Below, in pieces: positions 3 to 20,891 of a DNA stretch of 61,178 nt. Where the stretch lies: positions 1 to 61,178 of the forward strand of contig JBBQUN010000002.1 of the NCBI GenBank assembly GCA_038212405.1. Direction: 5' to 3'. Under the pieces are notes generated by a model. It made no database searches. It worked only from the letters and a program-made list of their open reading frames with translations, and was not told the DNA's origin. This DNA comes from Acidimicrobiales bacterium (GTDB lineage: Bacteria > Actinomycetota > Acidimicrobiia > Acidimicrobiales > SZUA-35). The position numbers were made by a program, and so were the translations under genes. Each line of letters opens with the position of its first letter. The stretch's first letter is position 1.

Positions 3-239
3 CGTCGACAACCCGCCCGCTTCGCCAACATCTACTTCGACGCGCCCCGACCACCGGTCCAGGCCGTCCTCTGGCCCCCAGGCATCGAACACCACTGCAT
101 GCAACGACCTTCAGAAGCCGATCGGTGGATCGAGGCTAAGGTGGAACCATGCGTGGCCTGGAATCGAAGTCAGATGAAGTGTCGAAGCGAACCTACCAGT
201 CGCCGAAGCTGGAAGTCCTTGGCTCGGTCTCTGCGTTGA
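3..239 (+). CDS. Possible 3' end of an upstream gene entering from the left edge (function unknown)
   Basis: Frame 3 is open from the window edge, with clear G/C third-position bias over about nt 3-100 (..FANIYFDAPRPPVQAVLWPPGIEHH..). There is no stop until TGA 237-239, which would overlap the precursor gene. The bias fades after about nt 100, so the real end is unclear. Confidence 0.2.
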   Translation, partial: RRQPARFANIYFDAPRPPVQAVLWPPGIEHHCMQRPSEADRWIEAKVEPCVAWNRSQMKCRSEPTSRRSWKSLARSLR

Positions 240-319
240 CCGCGAGCGGTTCGGCCAACCAAATGGAGAATGACATGTCAAATCCGCCGCGGGTTGGGCC
301 TACCTTCAACATGGCCTAG
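149..319 (+). CDS. Lasso-peptide precursor A1 (56 aa)
   Basis: Not in the ORF track because it is under 60 aa. ATG 149 follows an AAGGTGGA Shine-Dalgarno; stop is TAG 317-319. Translation: MRGLESKSDEVSKRTYQSPKLEVLGSVSALTA / SGSANQMENDMSNPPRVGPTFNMA. The leader fits YxxPxLxxxGxxxxxTx exactly (Y16 to T31, Thr at -2). Core Ser1..Glu8 allows an 8-residue macrolactam. Third-position G/C bias supports this frame. Confidence 0.8.
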   Translation: MRGLESKSDEVSKRTYQSPKLEVLGSVSALTASGSANQMENDMSNPPRVGPTFNMA

Positions 320-373
320 CGGCAGGCCCGGTTCCGACCTTCCGGTGGTGGTCTTCCGAAATCCGGTGCGTGA

Positions 374-985
374 TTGGTTATCAACATGTTGGGCAACTTG
401 AGTGTGCACGGAGCTGCAGTTGTCGTTAGCCGAAGGGCTTTGGTCTTTCTCGCCCCTTCCGGATGGGGAAAGTCGACCATTGCGGCTGCATTTCATCGTC
501 GCGGGTTCGAGATTCTGACTGACGATCGGTTGCGGCTCGAGGTCACGGCCGAAGGTCAACTTGTGGCAACCCCGATCGATCGCTGCCTGAGGTTGTGGCC
601 CGAAACCGCTTCGCAACTCATGCCGGGCGGGGCCTTCGCTGCAGTCACGGGCGAGAAGCATCGGTTGGAACTGGACATTGCAGGCAACCGATCGGCTGGG
701 CAGTCGGTGGCCGCAATCTTCACGTTGGGGAGCCCATGCTCGACTGTTTCATGCGAGTTCCGGCCGCTCTCGGCGTCGGTAGCGGTGGCGACGCTTGTCG
801 CGAACTGTTTCCGGCCCGATCCATACGACGCTGACACCGTTCAGCAAATCTTCCAAGCTTGCGTCGAGGTTGTGAACGTCGTGCCCGTCATCGAGCTCGA
901 CTACAAACGTGATCTGGCGTCGCTCGATCATGTGCATGGACGCGTGCTCGAATACGTCGATGCGCTGCTGGGGGCAACTCCCTGA
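374..985 (+). CDS. HPr-kinase-like (HprK C-terminal domain family) putative peptide kinase, copy 1
   Basis: 203-aa ORF (TTG 374, or ATG 386). Motif pattern: SVHGAAVVV..ALVFLAPSGWGKSTIAAAF..G..ILTDD (P-loop GxxGxGKST followed by DD). It starts 55 nt downstream of precursor A1 on the same strand. Confidence 0.8.
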   Translation: MVINMLGNLSVHGAAVVVSRRALVFLAPSGWGKSTIAAAFHRRGFEILTDDRLRLEVTAEGQLVATPIDRCLRLWPETASQLMPGGAFAAVTGEKHRLELDIAGNRSAGQSVAAIFTLGSPCSTVSCEFRPLSASVAVATLVANCFRPDPYDADTVQQIFQACVEVVNVVPVIELDYKRDLASLDHVHGRVLEYVDALLGATP

Positions 986-989
986 AAGA

Positions 990-1277
990 TCAGGAATGAG
1001 AAGACCCGTCAATTTCGAGCAAGCCATGCCCCATTAAGCTGCCGGCCAGTTCCAGAACATCTGAGTGGATCTGGTCGAGGGGGGCATCGAACTCGGCCTC
1101 GACGGCGGCGACGGCGGCGTCGACGGTGCCACCCTCCTGCCACACGCCGAACGCACACGCGGCAACAGGGTTGAGGCCGATGTAGGACTCCGACGCCATG
1201 TCGAGCAGCACGGTCTCGTCGGCCACGCGTCGGGCCGTCACCGAGTCTGGAATCCGAAATCGGGTTGTGCCGTCCAC
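990..1277 (-). CDS. PqqD-family RRE protein, copy 1 (candidate lasso B1)
   Basis: This is the C-terminal 95 codons of the 222-aa ORF 990..1658. GTG 1277 is preceded by GAAGGTGGAAC. Sequence RFRIPDSVTARRVADETVLLDMASESYIGLNPVAACAFGVWQEGGTVDAAVAAVEAEFDAPLDQIHSDVLELAGSLMGHGLLEI matches the PqqD pattern. The upstream part of the long ORF overlaps the methyltransferase start region and is rejected. Confidence 0.7.
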   Translation of the reverse strand: MDGTTRFRIPDSVTARRVADETVLLDMASESYIGLNPVAACAFGVWQEGGTVDAAVAAVEAEFDAPLDQIHSDVLELAGSLMGHGLLEIDGSSHS

Positions 1278-1322
1278 GTTCCACCTTCGATCGACGAGTG
1301 CGCCGAGGGTAGTGTGCCACCG

Positions 1323-2498
1323 ATGAGCCAGAGCGAGTTGACCGAGCACGCCTCGTACGTGGCCGACGAAGTGAAGGTCGAGGCCTACCGCCGAGCTCTC
1401 ACCAACCTGGTGAAGCCGGGTGACGTCGTGATCGACCTCGGGTGCGGCAGCGGACTGCTCGGACTCCTTGCGCTCGAAGCTGGGGCCGGGTGCGTCATCG
1501 CCGTCGACTCCGGACCGATCCTCGAGGTGGCCCGAGACACCTTCGCCGCCAACGGCGTGATCGATCGAGTGCGCTTCCACCGAGGCGACTCGTCCACACT
1601 CGGGCTGAGCGAACCGGCCGACGTGGTGGTGTGTGATCAGATCGGTGGGTTCGCCCACGAAGTCGGCCTCACCAAGGTCGTCCGTGATCTGTTCGATCGT
1701 GGGGTCGCGAAGCCCGACGCCATCGTCGTGCCCGGCGGCTTCGAACTGTTCGTTGCCCCGGTGGCGCTGACAGCGGGCGATCCTCTCACGCCGTGGTCCG
1801 ACAACTCGACCGGTTTCGACTTCTCGCCCTTCGGTCGTTCCGCCGCGAACACACCGTTCCGGCTGACGGTCGATGCCTCGTCATTGCTCGGACCCGGGGT
1901 GATGGCCTGGGAACTCGACGCAACCGACACGTCGGCGATCTCGTTCGAGCTCGACCTCCCGATTGCCCGCGGCGGCAGATTCACGGGCCTCGTCGGCTAC
2001 ATGCGGGCCCACCTCGACCGGCACAACGGTGTCGTGCTGACCAACGACCCGAACGACCCCGGGCGATTCCGGAGATGGCACCTCTACCACCCCCTGGCGA
2101 CACCCATCGACGTCGCAGCGGGGGAGCGGGTGCACGCTTCGTTCGTCATCAACCAGCTCGGTCAGATCACCAAGTGGACCGTCGAAGTCGCCGATCACCG
2201 GCAGTCGATGTCCTCGTTCATCGGCGACTTCATCGATCCACTCGTCATGTTCGACCCACCGGCGGAGCGGCTGCTCACACTCAACCGGCCGGGTTTGGCC
2301 CGCCGCACCGCTCTCGATGCAATCGGCGATGGTGTGCTGTTCCCCGAGCTCGTCGAGCGGTTGGCCGTCGAGTTCCCCGATCAGTTCCCTACGCCCGACG
2401 AAGCCCGGAGGTTCGTTCGCGATCTGATCGGGCGCTACTGCGAACCCGGTCAGGACGCAGTGTCGAGCCCGGATGGTCGCAAGGGGAGCAGCGGGTGA
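1323..2498 (+). CDS. Class I SAM-dependent methyltransferase with PRMT-like core and a PqqD-like C-terminal extension
   Basis: ATG 1323 lies inside ORF 1065..2498. Motif I is VIDLGCGSGLLGLLALEAGAGCVIAVD. The motif II / acidic-loop region ADVVVCDQIGGFAHEVG resembles the PRMT double-E loop, and VVPGGFELFVAPV follows as in PRMTs. The last ~75 aa (LTLNRPGLARRTALDAIGDGVLFPELVERLAVEFPDQFPTPDEARRFVRDLIGRY) have the PqqD/RRE pattern. Confidence 0.7.
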   Translation: MSQSELTEHASYVADEVKVEAYRRALTNLVKPGDVVIDLGCGSGLLGLLALEAGAGCVIAVDSGPILEVARDTFAANGVIDRVRFHRGDSSTLGLSEPADVVVCDQIGGFAHEVGLTKVVRDLFDRGVAKPDAIVVPGGFELFVAPVALTAGDPLTPWSDNSTGFDFSPFGRSAANTPFRLTVDASSLLGPGVMAWELDATDTSAISFELDLPIARGGRFTGLVGYMRAHLDRHNGVVLTNDPNDPGRFRRWHLYHPLATPIDVAAGERVHASFVINQLGQITKWTVEVADHRQSMSSFIGDFIDPLVMFDPPAERLLTLNRPGLARRTALDAIGDGVLFPELVERLAVEFPDQFPTPDEARRFVRDLIGRYCEPGQDAVSSPDGRKGSSG

Positions 2499-2920
2499 TC
2501 GAAGGGTGGATGCACGGCGGCAACGTCGATCGGCTCACCGATCGGAACGCCATCCAGCTCGACCCAGGCATGGGCCCGCCCGCCCGAACCAAACCCCGAT
2601 CCGGCCCCGAGCCACAGTCGAGGTGATCGGCCCGACGAGGCCAGCATCAGCCACACGAATTGGGAACGGGCGAGGCACGACGAATCGTGCCGCCCGATCA
2701 GATGCCCTGCCCGCTTGGCCGCTCGAGCGACCGCCTCGGCATCCGGGCGCAGGCGGCCCCGAGTGAGATCGATCGCGGCGAGGGTCGACACCGCCGTCGT
2801 CGTCCGGCGCAGTGACCAGCGATTGGCGAGATGCAGAACCGGCACGATCACGACCGCCAGCGTCGTCAGCACGATGTCCGACACGAGACTCGAGCGTTCG
2901 AAGGTCGAAGGACGCCGCAT
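2450..2920 (-). CDS. Lasso-peptide B2 leader peptidase (transglutaminase-like cysteine protease), copy 1
   Basis: 156 aa. It carries the Cys...His signature of lasso B2 proteins: SSCLARSQFVWLML ... GRAHAWVELDGVPIGEP. Its 3' end overlaps the converging methyltransferase gene by 49 nt. Confidence 0.8.
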   Translation of the reverse strand: MRRPSTFERSSLVSDIVLTTLAVVIVPVLHLANRWSLRRTTTAVSTLAAIDLTRGRLRPDAEAVARAAKRAGHLIGRHDSSCLARSQFVWLMLASSGRSPRLWLGAGSGFGSGGRAHAWVELDGVPIGEPIDVAAVHPPFDHPLLPLRPSGLDTAS

Positions 2921-3027
2921 CGGTTCAGTGTGGTTCCCCGGCGATCGGTCTGCACCTTCGTCGAGAGCGCAGCGGTCGAATGACCCACGTCGTTGTGACT
3001 GGGCCGGCGGTGCACCATCATGACGGC

Positions 3028-4731
3028 ATGAGGCGTGTCCTGGTCACCGCATTCCAGGTCACGTTTGCTTCCGCTCGCCGGCTGGTCGTCGTCTCCTTTG
3101 CGCTCGAAGTCGTCTCGGCGCTGGCGCTCGCCGTCCAGCTGTACCTGTTGTCGGTGTTGCTGCGCCGGGTGCTCGACACGGCGACTCCGTTCGATCGACT
3201 CGGTCTCGTGGTCTGGCCACTCTTGGGGGTCGTCGCCACGTTCCTCCTGAGCCGGGTGGCATCGGCCATCGTGCGGGAACTGCGGTGGACGATTTCCGAA
3301 ACGGTCGCCGCCGACATCGAACGGGGTGTCATCGCCAGAGCGGCCGCCGCACCGCTGATCGAGTTCGACGACCCCGAGTTCCACAACCGCATCGAACGAT
3401 GCCGCAACGATGCCGCAGACCAGGTGTGGATGGTCGTCTCGGGCTTCGTTGGGCTCACCCGAGGGCTGCTGTCGTCGATTGCGGTCGCCGTCGTGATGGC
3501 GAGCATCGCCATCGAGCTCCTTTTCATCGGTGCGCTGGCGTTGGTTCCGACCGCGCTCACGCTGTCGCTGGTCTCTCGTCGACGCTACGCCCTCTACACC
3601 GATCTGACGGAGAACCAGCGGGAGCGCGGCTACCTGGTCGATCTCCTCACACAGCGTGCCGGCGCCAAGGAAGCCCGCATCTACCGGACGGCGTGGTCGC
3701 TTCGACCGCGATACGACGCGCTGGTCACGAGCCGCATCGCGCAGCTCCGAGCCGACACACGCCGCCGGGTCGTGCTCATCGCCGCAGGCGACGTGATGGC
3801 CGTCGTCATTCTCACGGTCGCCTTGCTGGTCGCCCTCGGCTTCGTAGCCGACGGTCGCATCAGCACCAGTGACGGTGGTGTCGCCGTGGCTGCGCTGTTC
3901 CAGCTCGTCGGATTGCTCACCGCAGCGGGTTCGGGCGCCGCGTCACTGAGGGGATCCTCCTTCCACGTCGCCGACTACCAGGCCTTCATCGACGGCGCCC
4001 CACCTGCCCCCGAGCTGGAAAGGGGCGGCACATTCGAGACGCTCGAGTTCCGAGACGTGTCGTTCACCTACCCCGGTCGTGATCGGTCGGTCTTCCCGCC
4101 GCTGTCCTTCACACTGCGCCGGGGTGACCTGCTCCTCGTCCGCGGGCCCAACGGGTCTGGCAAGAGCACCCTCGTTGCCATGCTGTGTGGGCTGCTCGAA
4201 CCGAGCGAGGGCATGATCGTGCTCGACGGTGAACCTGTCGACGACCCCACCGAACTCGCACGACGGTGTTCATTGCTGTTTCAGGACTTCATCCGTTTCG
4301 AACTCGAGCTCGGGCACGGCATCGGCATCGAAGACCAGCAACCGGACCCGGCGCGACTGGCGTCCGCGCTCGAACGATCAAGAAGCGAAACGATCGTCGA
4401 CGCCTTTCCCGACGGCGTCCATCAGCGCCTCGGTCGCACCTTCGCCAGCGGCCAGGAGCTCTCGGGTGGGCAGTGGCAGCGGCTCGCGCTGGCCCGAGCC
4501 CTCTACCATCCGACCACCCCGGTGCTCGTTCTCGACGAGCCGACATCCATGCAGGACCGTGACAACACCGAGGTCATCCACGGCCTGATTCGCCGATTGA
4601 GCGGGGAACGGACGGTCGTTCTCGTCTCGCATCGAGACGTTGGCGAACTCCAAGCCGATCTCACCATCGAACTCGGTGTCGACGGTACCCGGGCTCGAAT
4701 GATCGAGAACGATCGGGGCGGGACGGCATGA
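3028..4731 (+). CDS. ABC transporter, fused permease/ATPase (lasso-type exporter), copy 1
   Basis: The N-terminal TM region is followed by Walker A GPNGSGKST, ABC signature LSGGQWQRLALARAL and Walker B VLVLDEPTS. I prefer start ATG 3028 (or 2980). The ORF-track start at 2812 overlaps the divergent B2 gene. Confidence 0.85.
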   Translation: MRRVLVTAFQVTFASARRLVVVSFALEVVSALALAVQLYLLSVLLRRVLDTATPFDRLGLVVWPLLGVVATFLLSRVASAIVRELRWTISETVAADIERGVIARAAAAPLIEFDDPEFHNRIERCRNDAADQVWMVVSGFVGLTRGLLSSIAVAVVMASIAIELLFIGALALVPTALTLSLVSRRRYALYTDLTENQRERGYLVDLLTQRAGAKEARIYRTAWSLRPRYDALVTSRIAQLRADTRRRVVLIAAGDVMAVVILTVALLVALGFVADGRISTSDGGVAVAALFQLVGLLTAAGSGAASLRGSSFHVADYQAFIDGAPPAPELERGGTFETLEFRDVSFTYPGRDRSVFPPLSFTLRRGDLLLVRGPNGSGKSTLVAMLCGLLEPSEGMIVLDGEPVDDPTELARRCSLLFQDFIRFELELGHGIGIEDQQPDPARLASALERSRSETIVDAFPDGVHQRLGRTFASGQELSGGQWQRLALARALYHPTTPVLVLDEPTSMQDRDNTEVIHGLIRRLSGERTVVLVSHRDVGELQADLTIELGVDGTRARMIENDRGGTA

Positions 4732-4761
4732 GCCCGGTCACCGTTCCGACGCCATGAGCCG

Positions 4762-5505
4762 ATGATCGCTCAGCCGTTCCTGCTCATCGTCCTCGTTGTG
4801 ATCGGTATCGCGGCCGGATGGCTCGACACCCGTCGTGCGCCGACCCGAGGGTTCACGGGCCTGATCACCGCGGTTGCATTCGGGCTCGGATTCGTGCTCA
4901 CCCGAAAGGCATTCCGTCTGTCGTTGATCGGGTTCCCCGTCATCGGTCTCGGTGCGTCGATGGTGGGCGGTCGGTGGCGGTGGGGCGGAATCCTCACGGC
5001 CGTCGCAGGTGTCGGCGTGGTGACTTTCGTGTTGGGGAACGAAGTGTCGCCCGCGGTGACCGTCCCCGGCTTCGCCGTCCTCCTCATCGTGGGCTCGGGT
5101 AGTCGGGCGGAGACCGGCCGCGCCCTTGGCCCGCTCGTCGCTTTCTCCCTGATTTGCAGCCAGCTCGGTCTCTATGTCGCCGTTCCCGACACCGAGGCCG
5201 CGGTTGCCTCGGGTGGTGTGGCCATCGGCCTTGCCATTGCCGCAGTGCTCTTCAAGAGCGAGTCGCCCACCATCACTGCGGTCTCGGTGATCATGCTGAC
5301 GGCAATGCTCGGCTCGGCACGATCCACCGAGACGCTTCTCGGGACGTCGCCAGTATTGGGGGTCTTCGCGGTGCTTGCGATGCCTTCGATCGGCGTACGG
5401 CTCGAAGCACGCTTGGTGGCGGACCGACGCAAGCAGATGGTTGCGGCCATCGTCCATCTCGCCGCTTGCTCGCTGCCCCGGTGGCTCATCGTTGGTCACG
5501 TCTGA
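4762..5505 (+). CDS. Integral membrane protein, unknown function
   Basis: 247 aa, almost entirely hydrophobic Gly/Ala/Val/Leu-rich segments forming several predicted TM helices. It starts 30 nt after the ABC gene on the same strand. I recognise no family motif. Confidence 0.5.
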   Translation: MIAQPFLLIVLVVIGIAAGWLDTRRAPTRGFTGLITAVAFGLGFVLTRKAFRLSLIGFPVIGLGASMVGGRWRWGGILTAVAGVGVVTFVLGNEVSPAVTVPGFAVLLIVGSGSRAETGRALGPLVAFSLICSQLGLYVAVPDTEAAVASGGVAIGLAIAAVLFKSESPTITAVSVIMLTAMLGSARSTETLLGTSPVLGVFAVLAMPSIGVRLEARLVADRRKQMVAAIVHLAACSLPRWLIVGHV

Positions 5506-5509: not shown

Positions 5510-5794
5510 TCATTCGTTGGAGACCACCGCACCGAGATCGACGAGGTCGGCCATCACCTGTTCCATGTCGCTTCGGACAACATCGAGCGTGACATCAAAG
5601 ATCTCGACCAGTTCCTCCGCCAATTGCTCGACCGACACCGGTCGCTCGAGAGACGACCACACGATCGCCATCGGCGCTCCGAAGTGATTGACCTGGTCTT
5701 GCCCCGGTGGAATGAGAGCGACACCCTCGAGGACACGACGCCACAACACGTCGACCCGTCGTTGATACAACGGCGGTGCGTCTCGCTCAGTCAT
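5510..5794 (-). CDS. PqqD-family RRE protein, copy 2
   Basis: Start at MTERDAPPLYQRRVDVLWRRVLEGVALIPPG..VSVEQLAEELVEIFDVTLDVVRSDMEQVMADLVDLGAVV (PqqD pattern). Its ATG overlaps the stop of the upstream nucleotidyltransferase gene by 8 nt. Confidence 0.7.
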   Translation of the reverse strand: MTERDAPPLYQRRVDVLWRRVLEGVALIPPGQDQVNHFGAPMAIVWSSLERPVSVEQLAEELVEIFDVTLDVVRSDMEQVMADLVDLGAVVSNE

Positions 5795-6959
5795 CGAGCT
5801 GACCCCGTAGCTGCCTGACAGCTCGGCGAAGGTGACCTCGCTCGGTCCAACCTCGACTCTCGAGGTACTCCGGGCTGGGCCTGACGAGGGCATGAAGGTA
5901 CCGAGCCCGAGTCCGGACGCCGGGAATCACTGCCAGGGACGCGAACTGCGGCCAGTAGCCGCGTCCCTGGGTCGTGTAGCTACGAAGGAAGAGGACTTGG
6001 CGCCACGGCACCGACACGTCTGCGAGCCGTCGGATCGGATGATCGTCGGCCAGATCGAACGCCGCGATCGTTTCGACGGCGGCACGCCGGATCACGGCCT
6101 GGGCCTGCCAACGCCCACCCATCTCGATCAGGTCGTCCAGATGTTCGGGCCACCGTTCGACCAACAGCATCAAATCGCGCAACGAACCGAGCCGTGGCGG
6201 ATGGTTGCCGAGCGCCGCATCGAAGCATCCATGGATCAGCAGCCCCGTCGGGGTCAGCGTCGGGAGGGCTGTCCCGCCAATCGAGAAAATGTCAGATCCC
6301 AGGAAGAGTTCCTCGGGATCCATCGTCAGACCAAAGGGGCCCCGAGCGAACGTTCGGTGCACATCGACCTCGAGATCATCGACGCGGATCGTCACGTCTT
6401 TCGCGAACTCGAGATCGAAGCCAGTACGAACCTGGGCCTCTGGGCGAACACCGTCGAGATCGGACAGCAGGACCCGGATCGCTTCGTCGAGGTCATCGGA
6501 TCGGATGAGGATGTCGAGATCGACGAAGATCCGGTGTGATGGCTCCCCATACAGAAAATGGGCGAGTGCCACACCTTTCAGCATTCGGAAAGGAATGCTT
6601 GCCGAACCGAGCGCAGCAGCAACACGAAGGGTGGTCCGCTCCAGACGGAGCGAATGCGAGAGCCAGATGAGCAGCCGGTCGGACAAGCGGTCCATCAGGT
6701 CGTCGTCGAGTTCCCATTCCCCCCGCTCGATCGCGTCGCCGAGCGCGCCAAGGGTGCGGCTCCGTTCACACCGGTCGAGCAATTCGTCGAACTCGGCTGC
6801 GGTGAACTTCGCCGGTGGCTCGGGTACACCGCCTTGCAGTGGCATGGCGGCGATTGCGAGGAGCAGGCGATCGAGATCAGACCGCGCTGCGGGCGATCGT
6901 GTTCCTCGGATGGTCGAGGCGCCCATCCGGTCGATCATACTCGTGTCAATTGGGACCAC
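5787..6959 (-). CDS. Nucleotidyltransferase family protein (NTP_transf_5-like), copy 1
   Basis: 390 aa. Signature FRMLKGVALAHFLYGEPSHRIFVDLDILIRSDDLDEAIRVL (KG..a...Y....R...D.D.L), as in the uncharacterised nucleotidyltransferase family found in lasso clusters. Confidence 0.75.
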   Translation of the reverse strand: MVPIDTSMIDRMGASTIRGTRSPAARSDLDRLLLAIAAMPLQGGVPEPPAKFTAAEFDELLDRCERSRTLGALGDAIERGEWELDDDLMDRLSDRLLIWLSHSLRLERTTLRVAAALGSASIPFRMLKGVALAHFLYGEPSHRIFVDLDILIRSDDLDEAIRVLLSDLDGVRPEAQVRTGFDLEFAKDVTIRVDDLEVDVHRTFARGPFGLTMDPEELFLGSDIFSIGGTALPTLTPTGLLIHGCFDAALGNHPPRLGSLRDLMLLVERWPEHLDDLIEMGGRWQAQAVIRRAAVETIAAFDLADDHPIRRLADVSVPWRQVLFLRSYTTQGRGYWPQFASLAVIPGVRTRARYLHALVRPSPEYLESRGWTERGHLRRAVRQLRGQLDD

Positions 6960-7010
6960 TCCTCAGACTCGCCTCGGACCAGCGAGTCCTGCCACCGACA
7001 TCACAACGGC

Positions 7011-13063: not shown

Positions 13064-13092
13064 TTGATTGCGACCACGGAGCGTAGTACGGT
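13064..13092 (+). promoter_or_regulatory. Candidate sigma-70-type promoter for precursor A2
   Basis: TTGATT (13064-13069), a 17-nt spacer, then TACGGT (13087-13092, fits TANNNT). It sits about 30 nt upstream of the GGAGGG RBS and ATG 13124, in a comparatively A/T-rich intergenic region. Confidence 0.3.
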
Positions 13093-13123
13093 GCGTCAAA
13101 CCCAGAGCGGGAAGTTGGAGGGT

Positions 13124-13279
13124 ATGTCTATGAACTACGAATCACCATCAATCCGTGAGCTCGGCCGAATCGCCGAACTCACGCTTGGCCAAAACGGAAC
13201 ATCACTCGACGGCAATCGGTCGTACACGCAAACGGGTGGCGGCAACAATGAGGACGATCCGACGGACGACACGCCCTGA
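13124..13279 (+). CDS. Lasso-peptide precursor A2 (51 aa)
   Basis: ATG 13124 sits 3 nt after GGAGGG; the track shows a longer TTG-started 71-aa version. Translation: MSMNYESPSIRELGRIAELTL / GQNGTSLDGNRSYTQTGGGNNEDDPTDDTP. The leader fits YxxPxIxxxGxxxxxTx with the same spacing as A1. Core Gly1..Asp8 allows an 8-residue macrolactam. Confidence 0.8.
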   Translation: MSMNYESPSIRELGRIAELTLGQNGTSLDGNRSYTQTGGGNNEDDPTDDTP

Positions 13280-13287
13280 TCGCCGTC

Positions 13288-14982
13288 TCATGTGGCTCTG
13301 AGCCAACGATCGATCGAGACTAGCGAAGATGCCGGGATCACTGATCCCGGCATCTTCGCTTTTGCCGCATCGACGAGTCGATCCACCGCCTCGCCATCGA
13401 CCTCAGCAAGCTCGCGTACCGGGCCGTGTCGCGCCAACTCCAGCGTCCCCCCGGGCAGAGAAGCCCACGCCGTCGCCGAAAACTCGGCCTTCGTGGTGCG
13501 ATTACGGACGTTCTCGGGCAGCCGAGGACCAAAGGCAACGCGTTGGAGTGAGCGATCGGCGCCACACCTCCTCGGCCAGCCGGGAGGGAGACCGTAGGTC
13601 GCTTCGATGAGATCGATATCGAAGAAGGGGTGCGTGAGTCTGATGTCGAGGGGATCGGTGACGACGGCGAGGTCCTCCAATAGCCGAGTGATCCACCCAT
13701 CTCGAAGCATCTCGGACCGCCGGTCGATCGCGGGGTCACTCGTGTCACGGACCGCCGGACCGATCACCCGGCGCTCGATGCCGAGGTCTCGGCGGTACGC
13801 CGGCTCGAGCAGCGACAAGCCGAACGACGCGCTTCGTCGGCGCCACGCCAGCTCGGCGACCACCGGTCGTACCAGCAGGGGCCAGGTGGCTCGAGGGTGA
13901 GCGGTGATCCACCGGCCAAGCCGAGCGAGTTCCGCACGGTCGCCGGTACGAAGGGCGGAGAGAACTCGAGGGCCGACGAGTTGTGCGCCGAACGCATCGT
14001 CACCCCCCAAACCCGTGACCACCGTGGTGGCGCCCTGTTCTCGAAAACCGGAATGCAGCGATCGAGCCATCAAGCCGTTCGGTGGTGGAGGCGGTACTCG
14101 CCACTCAGCTACGAAAACATCGAGCCACGCCGGGCCGGCGAGAAACGGCGGAGCGTCGAGCAGCGGAAGGCCAAGGTGTCGGGCGACGGCATCGGAGTAC
14201 TTCCGCTCGTCCGCACGTTCGTCGTCGAAGACGATCCGGCCCAGGATCATGGCATCGGTCATCGAACTCGCGGTTGCCGCGACACTCGACGAGTCGAGTC
14301 CGCCGCTCACCTCGAATGCGGTCGTCTCGCCGATCGCCAGCCGCATGCGCACGGCGTCGTCGAGCAGGGAGCGGACTTCCTCGATGGCCTTCTCCCAGGA
14401 GATCGATCGTCGCTGGATCCGGGGTCGACGGGTTGCGCGGACCGATGGGATCGCGCTGCTGGGGACGGTGAGGGCGGTGCCCGGCAAGAGCCGCGTCACA
14501 CCGAGGTGGACGGTTCGGTCCTCGTGGCCGAGCGGGCCGGCCAGCATCTCGGCGATCGTGTGATGATCGGGACGTCGATCCACCCACGAGTTGGCGAGGA
14601 TGTCTCGTTGGAGGGGACTGGCGACCATTCGACCGCTGCCGGCAGCGAAGAAGCAGGGGCGAGCGCCGATCGGGTCTCGGGCAATCGTGATCGTCTCGGC
14701 GCGCCGGTCGGCGACGATCAGAACGAAGTCGCCCTTGATCGACTCGAGCCACGCACGTCGCCCGCAGACGCTCGACACCCAGGTGGCGTCGTCCGACGCA
14801 GCACCCGTCCGATGGATCGAACCGTCGACCAGAACCCATCGCTCGTCGTCCGCCGCAACATGAATCCATTTCGATGTCGAACGCCACGCAATGGTGGCCC
14901 AGCCGAGATCGATCGTTTCGTCGAGCCCGTCGGGAATGCGGTGCGTCCGGTCAGGTCCGACCTGGACGTACCAATCGCTCAT
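13288..14982 (-). CDS. Lasso-peptide cyclase (asparagine synthetase B-like, lasso C)
   Basis: Start MSDWYVQVGPD at 14982, an ATGA overlap with the B2 stop. The PP-loop motif is FEVSGGLDSSSVAA. The N-terminal glutaminase-like domain lacks the N-terminal Cys, as in lasso cyclases. This is the only such gene in the window. Confidence 0.85.
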   Translation of the reverse strand: MSDWYVQVGPDRTHRIPDGLDETIDLGWATIAWRSTSKWIHVAADDERWVLVDGSIHRTGAASDDATWVSSVCGRRAWLESIKGDFVLIVADRRAETITIARDPIGARPCFFAAGSGRMVASPLQRDILANSWVDRRPDHHTIAEMLAGPLGHEDRTVHLGVTRLLPGTALTVPSSAIPSVRATRRPRIQRRSISWEKAIEEVRSLLDDAVRMRLAIGETTAFEVSGGLDSSSVAATASSMTDAMILGRIVFDDERADERKYSDAVARHLGLPLLDAPPFLAGPAWLDVFVAEWRVPPPPPNGLMARSLHSGFREQGATTVVTGLGGDDAFGAQLVGPRVLSALRTGDRAELARLGRWITAHPRATWPLLVRPVVAELAWRRRSASFGLSLLEPAYRRDLGIERRVIGPAVRDTSDPAIDRRSEMLRDGWITRLLEDLAVVTDPLDIRLTHPFFDIDLIEATYGLPPGWPRRCGADRSLQRVAFGPRLPENVRNRTTKAEFSATAWASLPGGTLELARHGPVRELAEVDGEAVDRLVDAAKAKMPGSVIPASSLVSIDRWLRAT

Positions 14983-15440
14983 CGCAGATCCGATGGCAAC
15001 GTACCCAGGTCGGCGCCCGTCGCAATCACCGTGTAGCTGCCAACTGCTTCCGGATCGTCGTTGACCACGGTCGTACCGATCTGGACCCATGCGTGGGCTT
15101 CGACGCTGCCGGAAGTGTTTCGAACTCCGATGACCAGCTCGGCAGCGCTGCCGTGGCGTTCCAATTCGCGCAGTAGCGTCACGGAACGTCGCAGACAGGT
15201 CGGGTGCAGCGGCAGCAACGCGAACGCGCCGTCAATCCGCTCGGCCAGCTCGACGCCCTTGGCGGTCGTGCCGGGCGGCAGGGTCTCGTCGAGCTTCTCG
15301 AGGATCGGGCGCAGGCCTCCGCGCCGTAGCTCGAGCGACGTGCGGCCGGCCCTCCACGCCAACCGGAGCGTCTGCCGGTCGACGAAGGCTGCTGCGATCA
15401 GCGCCCGGAGAGTGGCAGGCAGCCCTGCCTCAGCTCCCAA
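14979..15440 (-). CDS. Lasso-peptide B2 leader peptidase (transglutaminase-like), copy 2
   Basis: 153 aa. Signature PTCLRRSVTLLRELERHG...GSVEAHAWVQIGTTVVND (Cys/His). Confidence 0.85.
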   Translation of the reverse strand: MGAEAGLPATLRALIAAAFVDRQTLRLAWRAGRTSLELRRGGLRPILEKLDETLPPGTTAKGVELAERIDGAFALLPLHPTCLRRSVTLLRELERHGSAAELVIGVRNTSGSVEAHAWVQIGTTVVNDDPEAVGSYTVIATGADLGTLPSDLR

Positions 15441-15690
15441 TCGCGAGTCCTCTCGCCAGTAACTCGGCGACGAGTTTGTCGAAGTCGGCGGCGAGGCGTT
15501 CCGGGTCGACGTCGGGAAAGCGCCCGGTGATGGTCGCGAGCGCTGTTTGACGATCGACGTGGGTCGTTCCGACTTCCCACATGAAGGCCGCAGTCGAGTT
15601 CAGTTCGAGATACATCTCGTTGTTGGAATCGAGTACGACCATCTCGTTGTTCACTCGCCGGGCAAAAACGCCTCTCGGTGCCGAAATCAT
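15430..15690 (-). CDS. PqqD-family RRE protein, copy 5 (lasso B1 of the C/B2 operon)
   Basis: Sequence: MISAPRGVFARRVNNEMVVLDSNNEMYLELNSTAAFMWEVGTTHVDRQTALATITGRFPDVDPERLAADFDKLVAELLARGLAI. ATG 15690 lies 8 nt after GGAGGGA; the maximal ORF reaches 15729. It overlaps the B2 start by 11 nt. Confidence 0.75.
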   Translation of the reverse strand: MISAPRGVFARRVNNEMVVLDSNNEMYLELNSTAAFMWEVGTTHVDRQTALATITGRFPDVDPERLAADFDKLVAELLARGLAIGS

Positions 15691-15768
15691 CGTTGTTCCC
15701 TCCATGTCTCCACCCGTCGGCCGTTTCACCCATCCATCAAGGAGTCACATGCCAGTATTCTCCGCCCT

Positions 15769-17556
15769 GTGACCGAGCACCAGACGACCAGTGTGTTCGA
15801 TGCGCTTCGGATGGCCTTGGGTTTCGTCTGGCGGAGCGCTCGCTGGACGCTGGTCATGCTCGCGCTTGCCCAGGTGCTCGCGGCGCTGGCGCTCCTCATG
15901 TTGCTGCTGTCGGTTCGATCGCTGATCGCCGGGCTCGAGGCCGGTGACCAACTGAGTTCGGTCACCTCGTCGGTCGTCGTCTCGTCGCTTGCGTTCCTCG
16001 TGATCGGTGTGGTGGGTGTCGGCTCACAGTCGCTGCAGCTCCTCATGGCGGAGAAGACGAACCGCATCGTGCAGCATGACATCATGCAGATCGCCGTTGG
16101 CGTGCCCTACTCGAGCTACGAAGATCCGGGCTTCCACGATCTGCTCGAGCGGACGACGCAGCGGACGGGAAACAGCTCCCTCCGACTGGTCGGCGGTGTG
16201 CTGACCATCCTCGAGTCGGTCGCCGGGATGTGTGCCGTTGCCATCGCGCTGGCGCGTACCGTGCCGGCGCTGCTTCCGATTCTGCTCGTGGTTGCGCTGC
16301 CGCTGCTCGTCGCTTCCCGAGTCGGCGCACGCATCAACTACCAGATGGCGCTCGAAGTGACCACCGACGATCGGCTGCGTCGATCGATGTTGCTTGCGCT
16401 CACGAGCAAACAGACGGCGCGGGAGGCCCGGACGCTCGGGTTGGGGGCATCACTCGGCACGCGGTGGGATCGGCTCTGGGATCAGCGCATCGCCCTCGTG
16501 CGATCGTTCGCGCTGCGCCGCATGTTCGTCTTGGCCGCGGCCGCCACGCTGTCGGCCTTGATGACCGGCGGCGTGCTCTTCGTGCTGGTGCGAGCAACGG
16601 CGAACGGGACGATCGGTCTCGCCGACGCCTCGGTGGCGGTGTTGGCGTTCCAGCAACTGCTGCAGCGCACCCGCTCCACCGCTCAGGCGACAGGGAACTT
16701 GCGGGAGTCCGCCCTCTTCCTCAGCGACTTCGAATCCCTCGACCAGTACCGGCGGCCCGCTCTTGACGACGGTCTGGCGCTCCCGACGCCCGAGGTGGTG
16801 TCGTTCGAGGATGTCTCGTTTCGATATCCGGGTGGACGGGGCGATGTGTTGGTCGGGACGAGCTTCGAGCTGCGCAGAGGCGAGATGACGGCGCTGGTGG
16901 GTGCCAGTGGGGCTGGCAAGTCGACCCTCGTCCACCTCTTGGCCGGCCTGTATCAGCCGATGACGGGACGGATCCTGTGGGACGGCGCCGACCTTGCCGG
17001 TGTGGACGATCGTGATCGTTGGCGGTCCACCGCGGTGACGTTCCAGGATTTCGGTCGCTTCGACCTCACCGCCAAGGAGAACGTCGAATTGGGAGACGCC
17101 GCTCGCAACGATGCCGAGGCGCTCCGGCACTCGATGGCGGTCGCCGGGATCAGCGACGTGGTCGAGCGTCTCCCCAGCGGCTTGGACACGTTCCTGAGCC
17201 GACTCTTTCCCGGGGGAACCGAGCTCTCTGTGGGGCAGTGGCAACGGCTGGCCGTGGCGCGAGCGCTGTATCGGCGCGCCGCGCTGTTGATCCTCGACGA
17301 GCCCTCGGCGGCCCTGGATGCCGAGTCCGAGGTCGAGTTGATCGATGCGTTGCGGGCCGAGTGCGACGAGCGAGTCGTGCTCGTCGTCTCTCATCGATTC
17401 AGCACGGTGCGTCGAGCAGACCGCATTCTGGTGCTCGACGCTGGTCGCATCGTGGAAGACGGCAGCCACGATGACTTGATGGGCCTCGACGGTCGCTACG
17501 CCCGACTGTTCCGACTCCAGATGGCCGAACCGCCGGCTGCAGTCGACCCTGGCTGA
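15769..17556 (+). CDS. ABC transporter, fused permease/ATPase (lasso-type exporter), copy 2
   Basis: GTG 15769 is in frame with ORF 15547..17556. TM domain, then Walker A GASGAGKST, signature LSVGQWQRLAVARAL and Walker B LLILDEPSA. Confidence 0.85.
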   Translation: MTEHQTTSVFDALRMALGFVWRSARWTLVMLALAQVLAALALLMLLLSVRSLIAGLEAGDQLSSVTSSVVVSSLAFLVIGVVGVGSQSLQLLMAEKTNRIVQHDIMQIAVGVPYSSYEDPGFHDLLERTTQRTGNSSLRLVGGVLTILESVAGMCAVAIALARTVPALLPILLVVALPLLVASRVGARINYQMALEVTTDDRLRRSMLLALTSKQTAREARTLGLGASLGTRWDRLWDQRIALVRSFALRRMFVLAAAATLSALMTGGVLFVLVRATANGTIGLADASVAVLAFQQLLQRTRSTAQATGNLRESALFLSDFESLDQYRRPALDDGLALPTPEVVSFEDVSFRYPGGRGDVLVGTSFELRRGEMTALVGASGAGKSTLVHLLAGLYQPMTGRILWDGADLAGVDDRDRWRSTAVTFQDFGRFDLTAKENVELGDAARNDAEALRHSMAVAGISDVVERLPSGLDTFLSRLFPGGTELSVGQWQRLAVARALYRRAALLILDEPSAALDAESEVELIDALRAECDERVVLVVSHRFSTVRRADRILVLDAGRIVEDGSHDDLMGLDGRYARLFRLQMAEPPAAVDPG

Positions 17557-18416
17557 CGCCGGAACACCCGGTCGAGCCCTGCCCTGACATCGCTCGGCGG
17601 CAGGAAGGCCAGGACGGCCACGATCATGATCGGCGTGAAGATGCCGACTCGGAGAAAGATCGCAAAGACGAGATGGAGCGCCACCGAGGTGGCGACGCCT
17701 ACACGTGGTCGAGTCACGAGCAGGATCGGCAGCACCAACTCGGTGAGCAGCACCAGGTAGGTCAGGGCGGTGGTGCCGAGGACGGTCTCACTGAGCAACG
17801 AGGGCATCGGCACCGACGCGACGCTCGGGTTGTGCAGCGCGGCATACACCGCTTCGCCCTGTCGCCACGTCGATCCTTGGAGCTTCCAGATCACGCTCGT
17901 GCAATAGACCACGATGACCTGGAGCCGGACCGATGCGACGAACAGCCGTGGTCGCTCGCGACCGGGAGCGGAGAGATTCCCGGTCAGGGTGGAGTGTGAA
18001 CCCAGGAACAGGGCAACGACGGCCCACATCAGGATCAGGCGGAGGAGCTGGTCGCCGGCGTTGATCGCGGCGGGCTGGAGTCGTTGGATCGACGTCACAC
18101 CGATGAACGCGATGACCACGCCGATCCGCGATGCTCGCCCGAGGGTCAGCGAGACACCGACGGCGGCGATGCCGAGGAGCACCAGAGTCACCCACCAGGC
18201 TGGGGAGCCGGCGAAGAACAGGGTCCAACTGAATCGACGGCCGGCTTCGGTGGGGAAGATCGACGAGTCGGAAAGGAGGGAGCGGGCGTCGAGGAGCCAC
18301 GAGAGTGACCACCAGCAGATCAACGCACCGAGGAGCGTTCTGACGAGCACCTCGGTATCTGGCTGCTCGGCGGCGAAGAATCGGCGGTGGAGCTGGCCGA
18401 GGATCGTGGTCGTCAC
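17496..18416 (-). CDS. HTTM-domain (vitamin-K-dependent gamma-carboxylase-like / SdpB-like) membrane protein
   Basis: 306 aa, polytopic. Pattern: LVRTLLGALICWWSLSWLLDARSLLSDSSIFP ... RLQVIVVYCTSVIWKLQGSTWRQGEAVYAAL ... LTELVLPILLV...ALHLVFAIFLRVGIFTPIMI, as in HTTM/SdpB-family proteins. Confidence 0.65.
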   Translation of the reverse strand: MTTTILGQLHRRFFAAEQPDTEVLVRTLLGALICWWSLSWLLDARSLLSDSSIFPTEAGRRFSWTLFFAGSPAWWVTLVLLGIAAVGVSLTLGRASRIGVVIAFIGVTSIQRLQPAAINAGDQLLRLILMWAVVALFLGSHSTLTGNLSAPGRERPRLFVASVRLQVIVVYCTSVIWKLQGSTWRQGEAVYAALHNPSVASVPMPSLLSETVLGTTALTYLVLLTELVLPILLVTRPRVGVATSVALHLVFAIFLRVGIFTPIMIVAVLAFLPPSDVRAGLDRVFRRQPGSTAAGGSAIWSRNSRA

Positions 18417-18991
18417 CCGTCGAACCCTCCCGCCGCCGGTTCCGCCTGCGAGTCGGTGGCCAGGATGCCCTCGTCGAGAGAGAAGATCGGTGTCGTGATT
18501 TCTGTCGGCTCACCATCGTTGCCTCGGCCAGGATCGAGGTTGGTGACTCGCACCAGGACGACGTCGACGACGTCCATGCCACGGTCCTCGGCATCGCTTG
18601 CCAGGTTCTCGGCCAACGGTTGCCAGAGCTCGTAGTTCTCGTTCGACACCATCTCCTTCGAGACCTTCTCCCAACGTCGGTCTCTCAAGAGCTGCCACTG
18701 CGGCGGAACGAGCGGTTCGTAGATCTCGATGGTGCCGTCGCTCGCGTGGAGCTCGACACGGAGATGTGGTGCGGTGGTTCCGGGGTTGGGAGCGAACATC
18801 GCCCAGCCCTGCACGCCGGCGGTCAGGTCGTAGAGCGGAGCCAGTCGGGCTTGTGCGGGGCGACCTACCCGCGGGTGAGGAAACGCGGCGAGGAGAGCTC
18901 CGACGACGAACGCCGCGTACACCAGTACCCGAAGACGGTCAGTCCTGGGCAACGAGTTGCTCCAGCAGACGACGGGCCGACTCCAATCCAT
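18413..18991 (-). CDS. Membrane-anchored protein, possibly SdpA/DUF5819-like partner of the HTTM protein
   Basis: It has an ATGA overlap with the HTTM gene start, one N-terminal TM helix (VLVYAAFVVGALLAAF) and the motif VQGWAMFAPNP. Start ATG 18991 is uncertain; GTG 18922 would avoid overlapping the upstream kinase gene. The family assignment is from memory and position only. Confidence 0.4.
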   Translation of the reverse strand: MDWSRPVVCWSNSLPRTDRLRVLVYAAFVVGALLAAFPHPRVGRPAQARLAPLYDLTAGVQGWAMFAPNPGTTAPHLRVELHASDGTIEIYEPLVPPQWQLLRDRRWEKVSKEMVSNENYELWQPLAENLASDAEDRGMDVVDVVLVRVTNLDPGRGNDGEPTEITTPIFSLDEGILATDSQAEPAAGGFDG

Positions 18992-19802
18992 CACGGCCCC
19001 GCCCGACGCAGAGTCGAACAGGGATTGTTTGCTCGACAACGGCACCGAGATGATCGAAGACGGCCGGTAGGGAGCCGCCCGCGTCGAGATCGGCATGAAA
19101 GGTGGCTCCGAAGAGCAACGCGTGGGCCCGGCCCCGACCGAGTTCGATCAGGCGAGACACCGAGGTGTCGTTCGGCTCGACGAAGACCAGTGCACCCAGC
19201 TCGATCGGTGCGTCGAGGAGGTCGAAGGTTCCGAGCCTGAGCCGGGACTTTCCGGCAATCGGCGTCGTGTCGGCAGCGCCCAGCAGCGCGACGCTTTGGT
19301 CGGTCAGTCGAATCGATGGGTAGGTGGCGTCGGCAAGCGGTGGTTTGTCGGCACTGATGACGATGCCATCGTCACCGCCGACCTGCCAGCCGCAGTAGGC
19401 GAGATGCGACACCAGAGTGGACTTTCCCGAGCCGGAGGGTCCGATCAGGGCAAAACCCTTCCCCGCCTTGGCTGCCAAGGCTGCGTGCACCACGAGGTGG
19501 TTGGTCCAGGCAAGCCAGAGCGGGAGGATGTGGTCGAGGACGATGTGCTCGAGCGACTGCTCGTCGAGCGTTCGGTTGAAGCGGACCTGGTTCCCGATGA
19601 CTTCGGCGCAGCCTGCCTCCATGAAGTCGACCACGAGGCGATCGCCGTCGGTCCAGTGGCGGCGCCACAGCGTTCCATCGAGGCGGCGGGACTCCACACC
19701 AGGCGGGTCCGGCACGACGATCGGACCGGGTGCGAGTACCTCGAGCTGACGCTCGCTGCGCACCTGGGTCCAGATGTCGGTGAAATTGCTGGATGTCGGC
19801 AT
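18939..19802 (-). CDS. HPr-kinase-like putative peptide kinase, copy 3
   Basis: 287 aa. Motif pattern: VVHAALAAKAGKGFALIGPSGSGKSTLVSHLAYCGWQVGGDDGIVI. Confidence 0.75.
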   Translation of the reverse strand: MPTSSNFTDIWTQVRSERQLEVLAPGPIVVPDPPGVESRRLDGTLWRRHWTDGDRLVVDFMEAGCAEVIGNQVRFNRTLDEQSLEHIVLDHILPLWLAWTNHLVVHAALAAKAGKGFALIGPSGSGKSTLVSHLAYCGWQVGGDDGIVISADKPPLADATYPSIRLTDQSVALLGAADTTPIAGKSRLRLGTFDLLDAPIELGALVFVEPNDTSVSRLIELGRGRAHALLFGATFHADLDAGGSLPAVFDHLGAVVEQTIPVRLCVGRGRDGLESARRLLEQLVAQD

Positions 19803-19889
19803 GACCCCTCCCTCCGAGCGAGCTTAGGGTTCCACCGATGTTTGGTACATGGGCATCGATCCCACCTCGATGCCGGTACAGGAGTGTGG

Positions 19890-20891
19890 TCAGCTGACGA
19901 TGAGCCTGCGAGATTGGTAGGCGAGATAGCGGAGTCGGTTTCGGGTGCTCGTCTGATTGGCGAGAACCGCGATGGTCTCGCGGGCGACGCTCCGACTCGT
20001 CCGCAGGTAGGCGCGGTTGATGGCGGACTTGGAGATTCGTGGCGGCGGTGGAGGCTCGGGGTTTCCGATGGCCACCGCCAGCCACCGAGCCACCGAGACC
20101 AGGTCGATGATGCCGAACAGGCGCGCCAGATCGTCGACGCGATCTTCGTCGAGGTCTTGGCGTGTTTGGATGAGGGCGACGTCGACCAGCGACGAAAGCC
20201 GTCGGTGCTCGGGCGGTGACAAGAAGAGGTGCCCGGCTGCGTGGACGAGCCGGCCTGCAGGGTCGAGCGCATGGCCCAACTCGTTCGGTAGCGGCATCAA
20301 CTGACCGTACAGCTCCTTCGAGCCGTGAGGCCCGAAGCGGAACAGGCGATGGTGCACATCGAGTTCGATGCCGCTCGGCGTTCGAAAGGTCTGCTCGACG
20401 AGGAGGTCGGTCGGTTCACCCGCCTTCAAGGGTTCGTAGTGTTGGCCGAGTGTCTGGCACGCCCGAGCGAAATCGCCGTCAGGCACGAGGAGGTCGACAT
20501 CACCAGTGTGGCGAACCGCGCCGGCGGGGTAGTCGAGGTGTGACGTGGCGAGACCCTTGAGGATCACTGCGTCGACGCCGATTTCCGCGAGTTGGTTGAC
20601 GGTTCGGCGGGCAGCCGAGGTGAGGTGGAGAGCGAGGACGGTGACGTTGTGGGCTTCGTCGGCGGTGTCACCGAGAGCGGTCAACAGCGATCGGATCCTG
20701 TGCCGTTCGGCAAAGGCGAGCAGAGGCGGTGTGAGCTGGAGGTCGAGCGTGGTCGCACCCGCCAGGTGATCGATGCAGGCGCGCACCAACTCTGCGCCGC
20801 CAACCGGGGCGGCCTCGTCGACGAGTCGGATTGGGTCGGTACGTATCTGCGGCGAAAGATGCACACTGCCAGGTCTTGTCGAGGAGGTCAT
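19890..20891 (-). CDS. Nucleotidyltransferase family protein (NTP_transf_5-like), copy 3
   Basis: 333 aa. Signature AVILKGLATSHLDYPAGAVRHTGDVDLLVPDGDFARACQTL. Its ATG overlaps the stop codon of the upstream sugar phosphotransferase gene (ATGA at 20888-20891). Confidence 0.75.
   Translation of the reverse strand: MTSSTRPGSVHLSPQIRTDPIRLVDEAAPVGGAELVRACIDHLAGATTLDLQLTPPLLAFAERHRIRSLLTALGDTADEAHNVTVLALHLTSAARRTVNQLAEIGVDAVILKGLATSHLDYPAGAVRHTGDVDLLVPDGDFARACQTLGQHYEPLKAGEPTDLLVEQTFRTPSGIELDVHHRLFRFGPHGSKELYGQLMPLPNELGHALDPAGRLVHAAGHLFLSPPEHRRLSSLVDVALIQTRQDLDEDRVDDLARLFGIIDLVSVARWLAVAIGNPEPPPPPRISKSAINRAYLRTSRSVARETIAVLANQTSTRNRLRYLAYQSRRLIVS

Follow-up and report, generated by a model that had tools for sequence, protein, structure and literature searches.

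Are the many lasso peptide genes at the left end of contig JBBQUN010000002.1, from an Acidimicrobiales bacterium (assembly GCA_038212405.1), parts of a single pathway? The window that we have analysed is the entire contig, of 61,178 nucleotides; nothing of the contig lies to the left of nt 1. A region of 21 kb (149–20891) was presented in a preliminary description as one lasso supercluster with an unusual number of enzymes: two precursors (A1 and A2), two B2 leader peptidases, one cyclase, five stand-alone PqqD proteins, three HprK-like kinases, three NTP_transf_5 nucleotidyltransferases, one GNAT acetyltransferase and two ABC exporters. Family searches and direct reading of the sequence give the same counts. 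The framing as one supercluster gives way to a different one: the region probably consists of three adjoining units, which an Acidimicrobiia-like actinobacterium carries within a polysaccharide locus, and not of one biosynthetic unit. These are likely to be a complete lasso cluster (unit R, 13124–20891), a second lasso cluster cut by the contig end (unit L, 149–5505) and a lasso-independent cassette between them (unit M, 5510–12183). Each lasso unit has one kinase, as in its relatives. The excess comes from unit M, which accounts for one of the kinases, two of the nucleotidyltransferases, three of the PqqD proteins and the GNAT.

The window is GC-rich (~63%) and has many spurious open reading frames (ORFs); the gene set was picked by composition and then confirmed with Pfam and NCBIfam (Table 1). 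Searching for identical copies of proteins of the window by exact sequence gave no match. For comparison we have used a set of related loci, numbered L001–L026. The flanks of those with orthologues of the cassette cover 3.7–10 kb on each side. The catalytic motifs are intact in all the enzymes inspected.

The two lasso units share several features. When the lasso leader motif Y..P.L...G.....T is searched in the six frames of the 61 kb, only A1 and A2 match. Both have the characteristics of lasso precursors: Thr at position -2 of the leader, Gly/Ser/Ala/Cys at position 1 of the core and Asp/Glu at positions 7–9. Each unit also has a B1 protein, which is a PqqD-type recognition element (RRE) of RiPPs (ribosomally synthesised peptides that are modified post-translationally), together with a B2 peptidase: Pq4/B2b in unit R and Pq5/B2a in unit L. 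All four are above the curated cut-offs, which are 33 bits for B2 (NF033537) and 23.4 bits for PqqD in Pfam. The catalytic Cys and His are kept in both B2 proteins. The motif SGG[LIVM]DS of the cyclase is found only once in the window, in the gene at 13288–14982.

Unit R has the same gene block as L001, which reads N-K-U227-HTTM-D-B1-B2-C-A and contains one kinase and one nucleotidyltransferase. Gene for gene the two blocks are 42–80% identical: 80% for A2, 42% for the cyclase, 59% for B1, 62% for the exporter D2 and 61% for the HTTM protein. The nucleotidyltransferase N3, taken separately, has its best match in that of L001, with 33% identity. The kinase K3 shares 54% identity with the kinase of L001, 40% with that of L002 and 44% with that of L004; in the last two loci too, orthologues of K3 go with this cyclase clade. 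Relatives of the cyclase at E<1e-70 are five only, among 5.8 billion proteins searched. In the cores of this type the sequence G-x-x-G-(T/S)-(S/C)-x-D precedes an acidic tail rich in Gly; a final Ser is absent from all of them. Unit R is a complete lasso cluster with split B proteins: B1 would bind the A2 leader, B2 would cleave after Thr-Leu (leader positions -2/-1), the cyclase would link Gly1 to Asp8 and D2 would export the product. Its accessories are K3, N3 and the pair formed by the HTTM protein and U227. The latter has no family or PDB match; sequence searches of the PDB with K3, N2 and U227 gave P-loop noise or nothing.

Two observations on these loci may be added. The HTTM protein, related to the vitamin-K carboxylase/SdpB family, and its partner of 180–227 aa are conserved with an R-type lasso cluster in two loci: the window (17496–19096) and L001 (2746–4148). 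A literature search gave no paper tying HTTM proteins to lasso peptides. In L002 (2295–11734), which belongs to an Actinomycetota metagenome-assembled genome (GCA_030154825.1), two lasso clusters adjoin back to back, and a cyclase, a B1 and a B2 belong to each of them. It has three kinase-like genes in all, one of them without Pfam match and recognised by our local profile alone.

Unit L would be a second and different lasso pathway. Its members are A1, the kinase K1, a B1 of its own, the PRMT-like methyltransferase, B2a and the exporter D1. Its B1 (Pq5) sits between K1 and the methyltransferase; it was found with an iterated local profile and confirmed by Pfam. The layout PqqD(-)/methyltransferase(+)/B2(-) is the same in L023, L024 and L026, with identities of 63% for the methyltransferase and 52–57% for B1. 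B2a shares 45–47% identity with the B2 of L023 and L024, and K1 shares 35–36% with the L024 and L026 kinases. The methyltransferase has over 20 homologues at 57–63% identity; a scan of metagenomes with its alignment gave one 1.5-kb locus only. The L026 precursor core, SGSIAGMEVGSMATTEMG (SGSIAGME...), has in common with A1 (SGSANQME...) a ring SGSxxxME.

The absence of a cyclase in the A1 sub-cluster, already noticed in the preliminary description, is correct for the window; as a biological feature it is most simply explained as an effect of the contig end. All three syntenic relatives (L023, L024 and L026) have their own cyclase, in two of them directly upstream of the precursor. L024 and L026 start with the exporter(-), after which come the cyclase, precursor, kinase, B1(-), methyltransferase and B2(-). 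From the precursor onward the window has exactly this order, A1-K1-B1-methyltransferase-B2a, and therefore a cyclase is predicted directly upstream of A1. The start of A1 is found 148 nt from the contig end, at the place where L024 and L026 carry the cyclase. We consider it probable that the cyclase of unit L is just beyond this end and that its absence is an artefact of assembly. A true loss of the gene is unlikely. It is also rather improbable that unit L has lost its cyclase and borrows that of its neighbour, so that the single R-type enzyme would serve both precursors. Such sharing agrees with the presence of one cyclase in 61 kb, with the common leader motif and predicted 8-residue rings of both precursors and with the rearrangement of the locus, since D1 is downstream of B2a here, whereas the exporter is upstream of the cyclase in the relatives. 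It agrees poorly with the position of A1 at the contig end, with the intact B1, B2, kinase and exporter which unit L retains and with the low identity (25–29%) between the L-type cyclases of the relatives and the R-type cyclase of the window.

A1 ends in Ala (...FNMA) and A2 in Pro (...DDTP); the precursors of the relatives end in Pro, Gly, Glu or Thr, never in Ser. The kinase of paeninodin-type lasso peptides phosphorylates a C-terminal Ser (PMC8498205), a residue characteristic of the paeninodin and pseudomycoidin types which neither precursor has. Because it is absent, the kinases of the lasso units cannot act as in paeninodin, and these lasso types must therefore use a different site. Conserved Ser/Thr residues would be the candidates, at position 5 in the R-type cores and at position 3 in the L-type cores.

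Unit M is different from the two lasso units. The K2-Pq3-U222 run is conserved in three lineages of Acidimicrobiia, represented by L005/L008 (on a 4.87-Mb Acidimicrobiia contig), L006/L007 and L009, which are the contexts of the very few homologues of K2 (P0014–P0018). The overlap of 4 nt between kinase and PqqD is identical in L005, and in L005 and L009 the kinase is followed by a PqqD with which Pq3 shares 33–36% identity. The N1-Pq1 pair is also kept in L009, with the same 8-nt overlap (N1 48% identical over 363 aa, Pq1 37.5%). No Asn_synthase or Transglut_core3 gene, as expected for a cyclase or a B2, is present in the 3.7–10 kb sequenced on each side of the L005–L009 cassettes. Their flanks contain the same polysaccharide genes as the window: CapD, UGDH, Wzz/BY-kinase, glycosyltransferases and heparinase-like genes. 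One suggestion of the preliminary description, that some modules of RRE and enzyme act on substrates other than lasso peptides, fits these lasso-free orthologues of K2-PqqD-U222 and N1-PqqD.

The cassette of the relatives contains a Tat-signal (twin-arginine translocation) protein, a kinase, a PqqD, a U222-like protein, a nucleotidyltransferase with its PqqD, a second kinase fused to a PqqD-like domain and a second Tat-signal protein. U222 is syntenic with, and weakly homologous to, proteins of 234 aa in L005 and 258 aa in L009. It is rare, with five matches at E<=1e-3 among 1.84 billion representative proteins. Its single-sequence AlphaFold2 (AF2) model has a mean confidence score (pLDDT) of 39 and is unusable, and its comparison with the kinase profile by hhalign gave a probability of 27% only. 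N2 has no clear orthologue in the relatives and is 26–31% identical to N1 and N3. Neither the N2-Pq2 pair nor the GNAT has orthologues in the relatives: they seem to be additions specific to the locus of the window.

What could this cassette do? In unit M the HprK-like kinase and the NTP_transf_5 enzymes each show translational coupling with a PqqD/RRE protein. Domains of this kind bind peptides, and their tight coupling to the enzymes argues that a peptide or protein is modified under the guidance of a leader. If the pseudomycoidin enzymes PsmK and PsmN (PMC8498205) are taken as a model, the modification might consist of a phosphorylation guided by the RRE, after which a group would be transferred onto the phosphate. 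A substrate other than a lasso peptide would be the target, with the co-encoded Tat-signal protein TAT183 as the best candidate. It is the only candidate substrate gene which is conserved: its homologues adjoin kinase or PqqD genes in all of L005–L009. They have a mean identity of 47% in the N-terminal region, compared with 21% in the mature part. A Tat-exported protein should have a twin-arginine motif, a hydrophobic stretch and an AxA cleavage site; in TAT183 the sequence DRRSILKLGVATGVGVAAWAG...PAYA is visible, but the Pfam match to TAT_signal is weak, with 13 bits for a cut-off of 22.7. We tentatively suggest, as a rather doubtful possibility, that the PqqD proteins recognise the Tat N-terminal region and recruit an HprK-like kinase and NTP_transf_5 enzymes, with phosphorylation in the cytoplasm and then glycosylation or nucleotidylation before Tat export. 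If true, it would mean that a leader-directed chemistry of RiPP style acts on a folded exported protein, tied to a cell-envelope polysaccharide locus.

The lasso-free cassettes of L005 (9272–15188) and L009 (2389–10602) have two subtypes of Tat-signal protein each, ...GPQIGVLGxxPAYA and ...APKVSVxPAYGLT. Each subtype precedes a kinase of its own, upstream within one gene run, and directly adjoins it in L005. The window has the first subtype only. There is also a fragment (P0013, 261 aa), on a contig of 1023 nt, which is 100% identical to K2. Its presence on a separate short contig implies that the same strain has been assembled at least twice; reads that extend the contig may exist.

The genes around unit M suggest another kind of substrate: its enzymes and N3 could act on a polysaccharide or a cell-surface glycoconjugate, the PqqD proteins being mere scaffolds. 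Lasso clusters from the rumen with a kinase and a nucleotidyltransferase also carry GT2 and EpsH genes (PMC7533575). Every locus of Acidimicrobiia type is in or beside polysaccharide genes (CapD, UGDH, Wzz, Bac_transf, glycosyltransferases), and the start of N3 overlaps the stop of Bac_transf. Such a role has a low probability when we consider the peptide-binding nature of the PqqD/RRE domains and their translational coupling to the enzymes; furthermore the distant triads L010–L022 showed no polysaccharide genes in a crude search.

It may also be asked whether all three kinases, the three nucleotidyltransferases and the extra RREs could tailor both lasso precursors in several steps, as one integrated supercluster. 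The genes are indeed tightly packed, with no unrelated gene between them. In L024 and L026 a nucleotidyltransferase is found directly after B2, and cassettes with short kinase, PqqD, nucleotidyltransferase and Tat-signal genes adjoin the L-type lasso clusters in L023 and L026. Nevertheless we regard this organization as quite unlikely: the orthologues of the cassette in L005–L009 have no lasso genes nearby, a single kinase suffices in the relatives of each lasso unit and neither precursor has the C-terminal Ser needed by the known lasso kinases (PMC8498205). Nor is the region unique. Juxtapositions with several kinases are commonly met in this lineage: three kinase-like genes accompany two cyclases in L002, and L023 and L026 contain two kinases apiece. 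Multi-kinase loci are frequent in this small sample, where the window has the top count of nucleotidyltransferases, three. Adjacent lasso clusters are ordinary. As a finding that would speak against it, the preliminary description had named a pair of ordinary and independent lasso clusters that are duplicated in relatives too; this is in part what we observe. Recent duplication is ruled out as a source of the extra kinases and nucleotidyltransferases, since the paralogues within the window are only 26–33% identical.

In this division into three units, the family assignments, the synteny, the orthology and the lack of lasso genes around the orthologues of the cassette are observed; the chemistry, the substrates and the position of the missing cyclase are inferred. 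The division also has points that count against it. No sequence is available to the left of nt 1. The DNA alignment of nt 1–200 with the cyclase-precursor junctions of L023, L024 and L026 falls within the range of shuffled sequences, and the first 148 nt have no significant similarity to the junctions of L024 or L026, which leaves no direct trace of a truncated cyclase. To this should be added the displacement of D1, which indicates a rearranged locus. N3 is translationally coupled to Bac_transf by a 4-nt overlap (20888–20891) and might be a gene of the polysaccharide pathway instead of unit R. Signal-peptide constraints alone may be the reason why the Tat N-terminal region is more conserved. 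The recurrent linkage of cassettes with lasso clusters in L023 and L026 could represent a functional tie to lasso peptides. Finally, all the kinases score below the curated family cut-offs.

The kinases deserve further comment. The family assignments of the preliminary description stand for NTP_transf_5, B2, the cyclase and four of the five PqqD proteins. They are less firm for the kinases and for Pq3, which is below the Pfam cut-off and is supported by our local profile and by its orthologues. The best NCBIfam match of K1, K2 and K3 is TIGR04352 (HprK-related kinase A), with 34–54 bits for a cut-off of 200 (K2 54 bits, K1 and K3 ~35). These scores are far under the cut-off, and therefore the label holds at the superfamily level only. 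The GKST P-loop and the DD/DE pair are intact in all three. The fold was tested on K2 only: its AF2 model has a pLDDT of 72.8 and the best PDB folds found by Foldseek are HprK/P and PEPCK, with E ~1e-4. The C-terminal tail of K2 is related to PqqD, as judged by an hhalign probability of 90% (E 1.5e-6). A similar tail had been proposed for the methyltransferase; it was rejected, with no Pfam match and an hhalign probability of 17%. The nucleotidyltransferases N1, N2 and N3 give 88, 108 and 74 bits on NTP_transf_5 (PF14907), whose cut-off is 31.2, and all three have the D.D motif.

By score the cassette remains outside the HPr-rel-A systems of NCBIfam: K2 has 54 bits on TIGR04352, and the PqqD proteins are under the cut-off of 35 bits for TIGR04353 (PqqD family peptide chaperone), with 14.8 bits for Pq2. 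The relatives are below the cut-offs too. By gene content, a kinase, a PqqD and a nucleotidyltransferase are found together without lasso genes in the L005–L009 orthologues and in the triads L010, L011, L012, L019, L021 and L022. The distant triads of nucleotidyltransferase, PqqD and kinase (L010–L022) are found in Planctomycetota, Myxococcota and Azohydromonas, also without lasso genes.

The features of the region are collected in Table 1.

Table 1. Genes and other features of the 21-kb region and of its right border, in the order of the window
Feature	Position	Strand	Evidence and remarks
Precursor A1	149–319	+	Leader-motif scan; leader ...YQSPKLEVLGSVSALT-A; core SGSANQMENDMSNPPRVGPTFNMA; predicted Ser1-Glu8 ring
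K1, short HprK-like kinase, 203 aa	374–985	+	Hpr_kinase_C 2.5e-4, TIGR04352 1.1e-8, both below cut-off; P-loop and DD pair
B1/RRE (Pq5)	990–1277	-	Pfam PqqD 7.4e-12, 45.9 bits
PrmA/PRMT-like S-adenosylmethionine (SAM) methyltransferase, conserved C-terminal tail	1320–2498	+	PrmA 2.2e-10
B2a leader peptidase	2450–2920	-	NF033537 47 bits; Cys82, His118
ABC exporter D1	2812–4731	+	ABC_tran 5e-24; true start probably near 2980–3025
Predicted membrane protein, 247 aa	4762–5505	+	Membership of unit L uncertain
PqqD Pq1	5510–5794	-	PqqD 1.6e-6, 28.8 bits; start overlaps N1 stop by 8 nt
Nucleotidyltransferase N1	5787–6959	-	NTP_transf_5 9.4e-25, 88 bits
GNAT acetyltransferase, window-specific, outside the conserved cassette	7011–7928	-	Acetyltransf_9 1.4e-13
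TAT183, Tat-signal, Cys/Thr/Gly-rich secreted protein, 183 aa, candidate substrate	8065–8616	-	
PqqD Pq2	8650–8994	+	PqqD 3.3e-5, 24.5 bits; end overlaps N2 start
Nucleotidyltransferase N2	8981–10060	+	NTP_transf_5 8.1e-31, 108 bits
U222, protein without assigned function	10049–10717	-	Synteny and weak homology
PqqD-like Pq3	10745–11095	-	PqqD 0.0075, 17 bits (cut-off 23.4); start overlaps K2 stop by 4 nt
K2, HprK-like kinase, degenerate C-terminal PqqD-like domain	11092–12183	-	TIGR04352 1.3e-14, below cut-off
Spacer between units M and R	12184–13123		940 bp; contains only the orphan ORF 12269–12871 (-)
Precursor A2	13124–13279	+	Leader-motif scan; leader ...YESPSIRELGRIAELT-L; core GQNGTSLDGNRSYTQTGGGNNEDDPTDDTP; predicted Gly1-Asp8 ring
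Lasso cyclase C	13288–14982	-	Asn_synthase 3.6e-24; SGGLDS
B2b leader peptidase	14979–15440	-	NF033537 69 bits
B1/RRE (Pq4)	15430–15729	-	PqqD 1.4e-11, 45.0 bits
ABC exporter D2	15547–17556	+	ABC_tran 7e-28
HTTM-domain membrane protein	17496–18416	-	HTTM 6e-8
U227, pairs with the HTTM protein	18413–19096	-	66% identical to a 180-aa protein of L001
K3, HprK-like kinase conserved with this cyclase clade	18939–19802	-	TIGR04352 9e-9
Nucleotidyltransferase N3, unit R or edge of the polysaccharide locus	19890–20891	-	NTP_transf_5 1.4e-20, 74 bits
Bac_transf sugar phosphotransferase, first gene of the ~40-kb polysaccharide locus	20888–21808	-	Bac_transf 7e-59

Two genes of the region have no family match and no homologue in the related loci: the 247-aa membrane protein and the 200-aa orphan ORF of the spacer. 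The 940 bp that separate K2 from A2 could be non-coding or represent a decayed gene. A search for tRNA and Rfam families in the window found none.

The rest of the window (20.9–61 kb) is one large polysaccharide locus, with two CapD paralogues, DegT, glycosyltransferases, a heparinase-like gene, a flippase, an ADH-GFO fusion, two Wzz/BY-kinases and a Bac_transf-GT4 fusion. Its segment 28000–34000, which covers the flippase and two ORFs without Pfam match (30385–31455 and 32030–33457), has a G+C content of 55–57%, compared with ~63% elsewhere; it looks like a variable segment of serotype type, possibly exchanged horizontally. The same locus contains a protein of 1072 aa (39464–42682, minus strand) with an AAA_16 ATPase domain as its sole family match, which may be a regulator of STAND/LuxR type. 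In two relatives, L023 (829–2189) and L026 (16194–17340), the lasso and cassette loci are flanked by Thr/Pro-rich surface proteins with LPxTG-like C-terminal anchors, again a cell-surface theme for this neighbourhood.

The region is thus a juxtaposition of variants of known lasso types with a rare uncharacterised cassette. It demonstrates that enzyme counts in a fixed window can mislead the genome mining of RiPPs: what looked like a 3:3:6 stoichiometry resolves into lasso units with one kinase each and an independent cassette. The lasso units point to untested chemistries, with kinases at another site in both, a PRMT-like methyltransferase in one type and an HTTM partner in the other. The cassette of kinase, PqqD and nucleotidyltransferase, with its candidate Tat-signal substrate, offers a testable way into the HPr-rel-A-like systems, which are catalogued but uncharacterised.

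Tailoring of lasso peptides by kinases and nucleotidyltransferases is already known (PMC8498205, PMC7533575). As in the paeninodin and pseudomycoidin clusters, we find split B1/B2 proteins, an Asn-synthetase-like cyclase (in unit R), an ABC exporter and one HprK-like kinase per lasso unit, which in unit R is beside a PF14907 nucleotidyltransferase. The differences are the lack of a C-terminal Ser in the precursors, the host, which is actinobacterial and not from Firmicutes or Proteobacteria, the additional HTTM/U227 pair (unit R) and PRMT-like methyltransferase (unit L) and the kinase scores, far below the curated cut-offs. A SAM methyltransferase encoded inside a lasso cluster is also a feature of the lassomycin/StspM type (PMC8498205). 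The enzyme of unit L differs from it by being PrmA/PRMT-like, unlike the O-methyltransferase reported for C-terminal carboxyl methylation; the L023 precursor core has no Arg or Lys. A search of the literature gave nothing on the lasso-free cassette or on HPr-rel-A systems. The cassette resembles these systems (TIGR04352 + TIGR04353) and the L010–L022 triads: they all join a PqqD to a kinase from one superfamily, in most cases with a PF14907 nucleotidyltransferase as well, and have no lasso genes. The Acidimicrobiia cassette is distinguished from HPr-rel-A by the addition of U222, of Tat-signal proteins, of a second kinase or nucleotidyltransferase and, in the window, of a GNAT.

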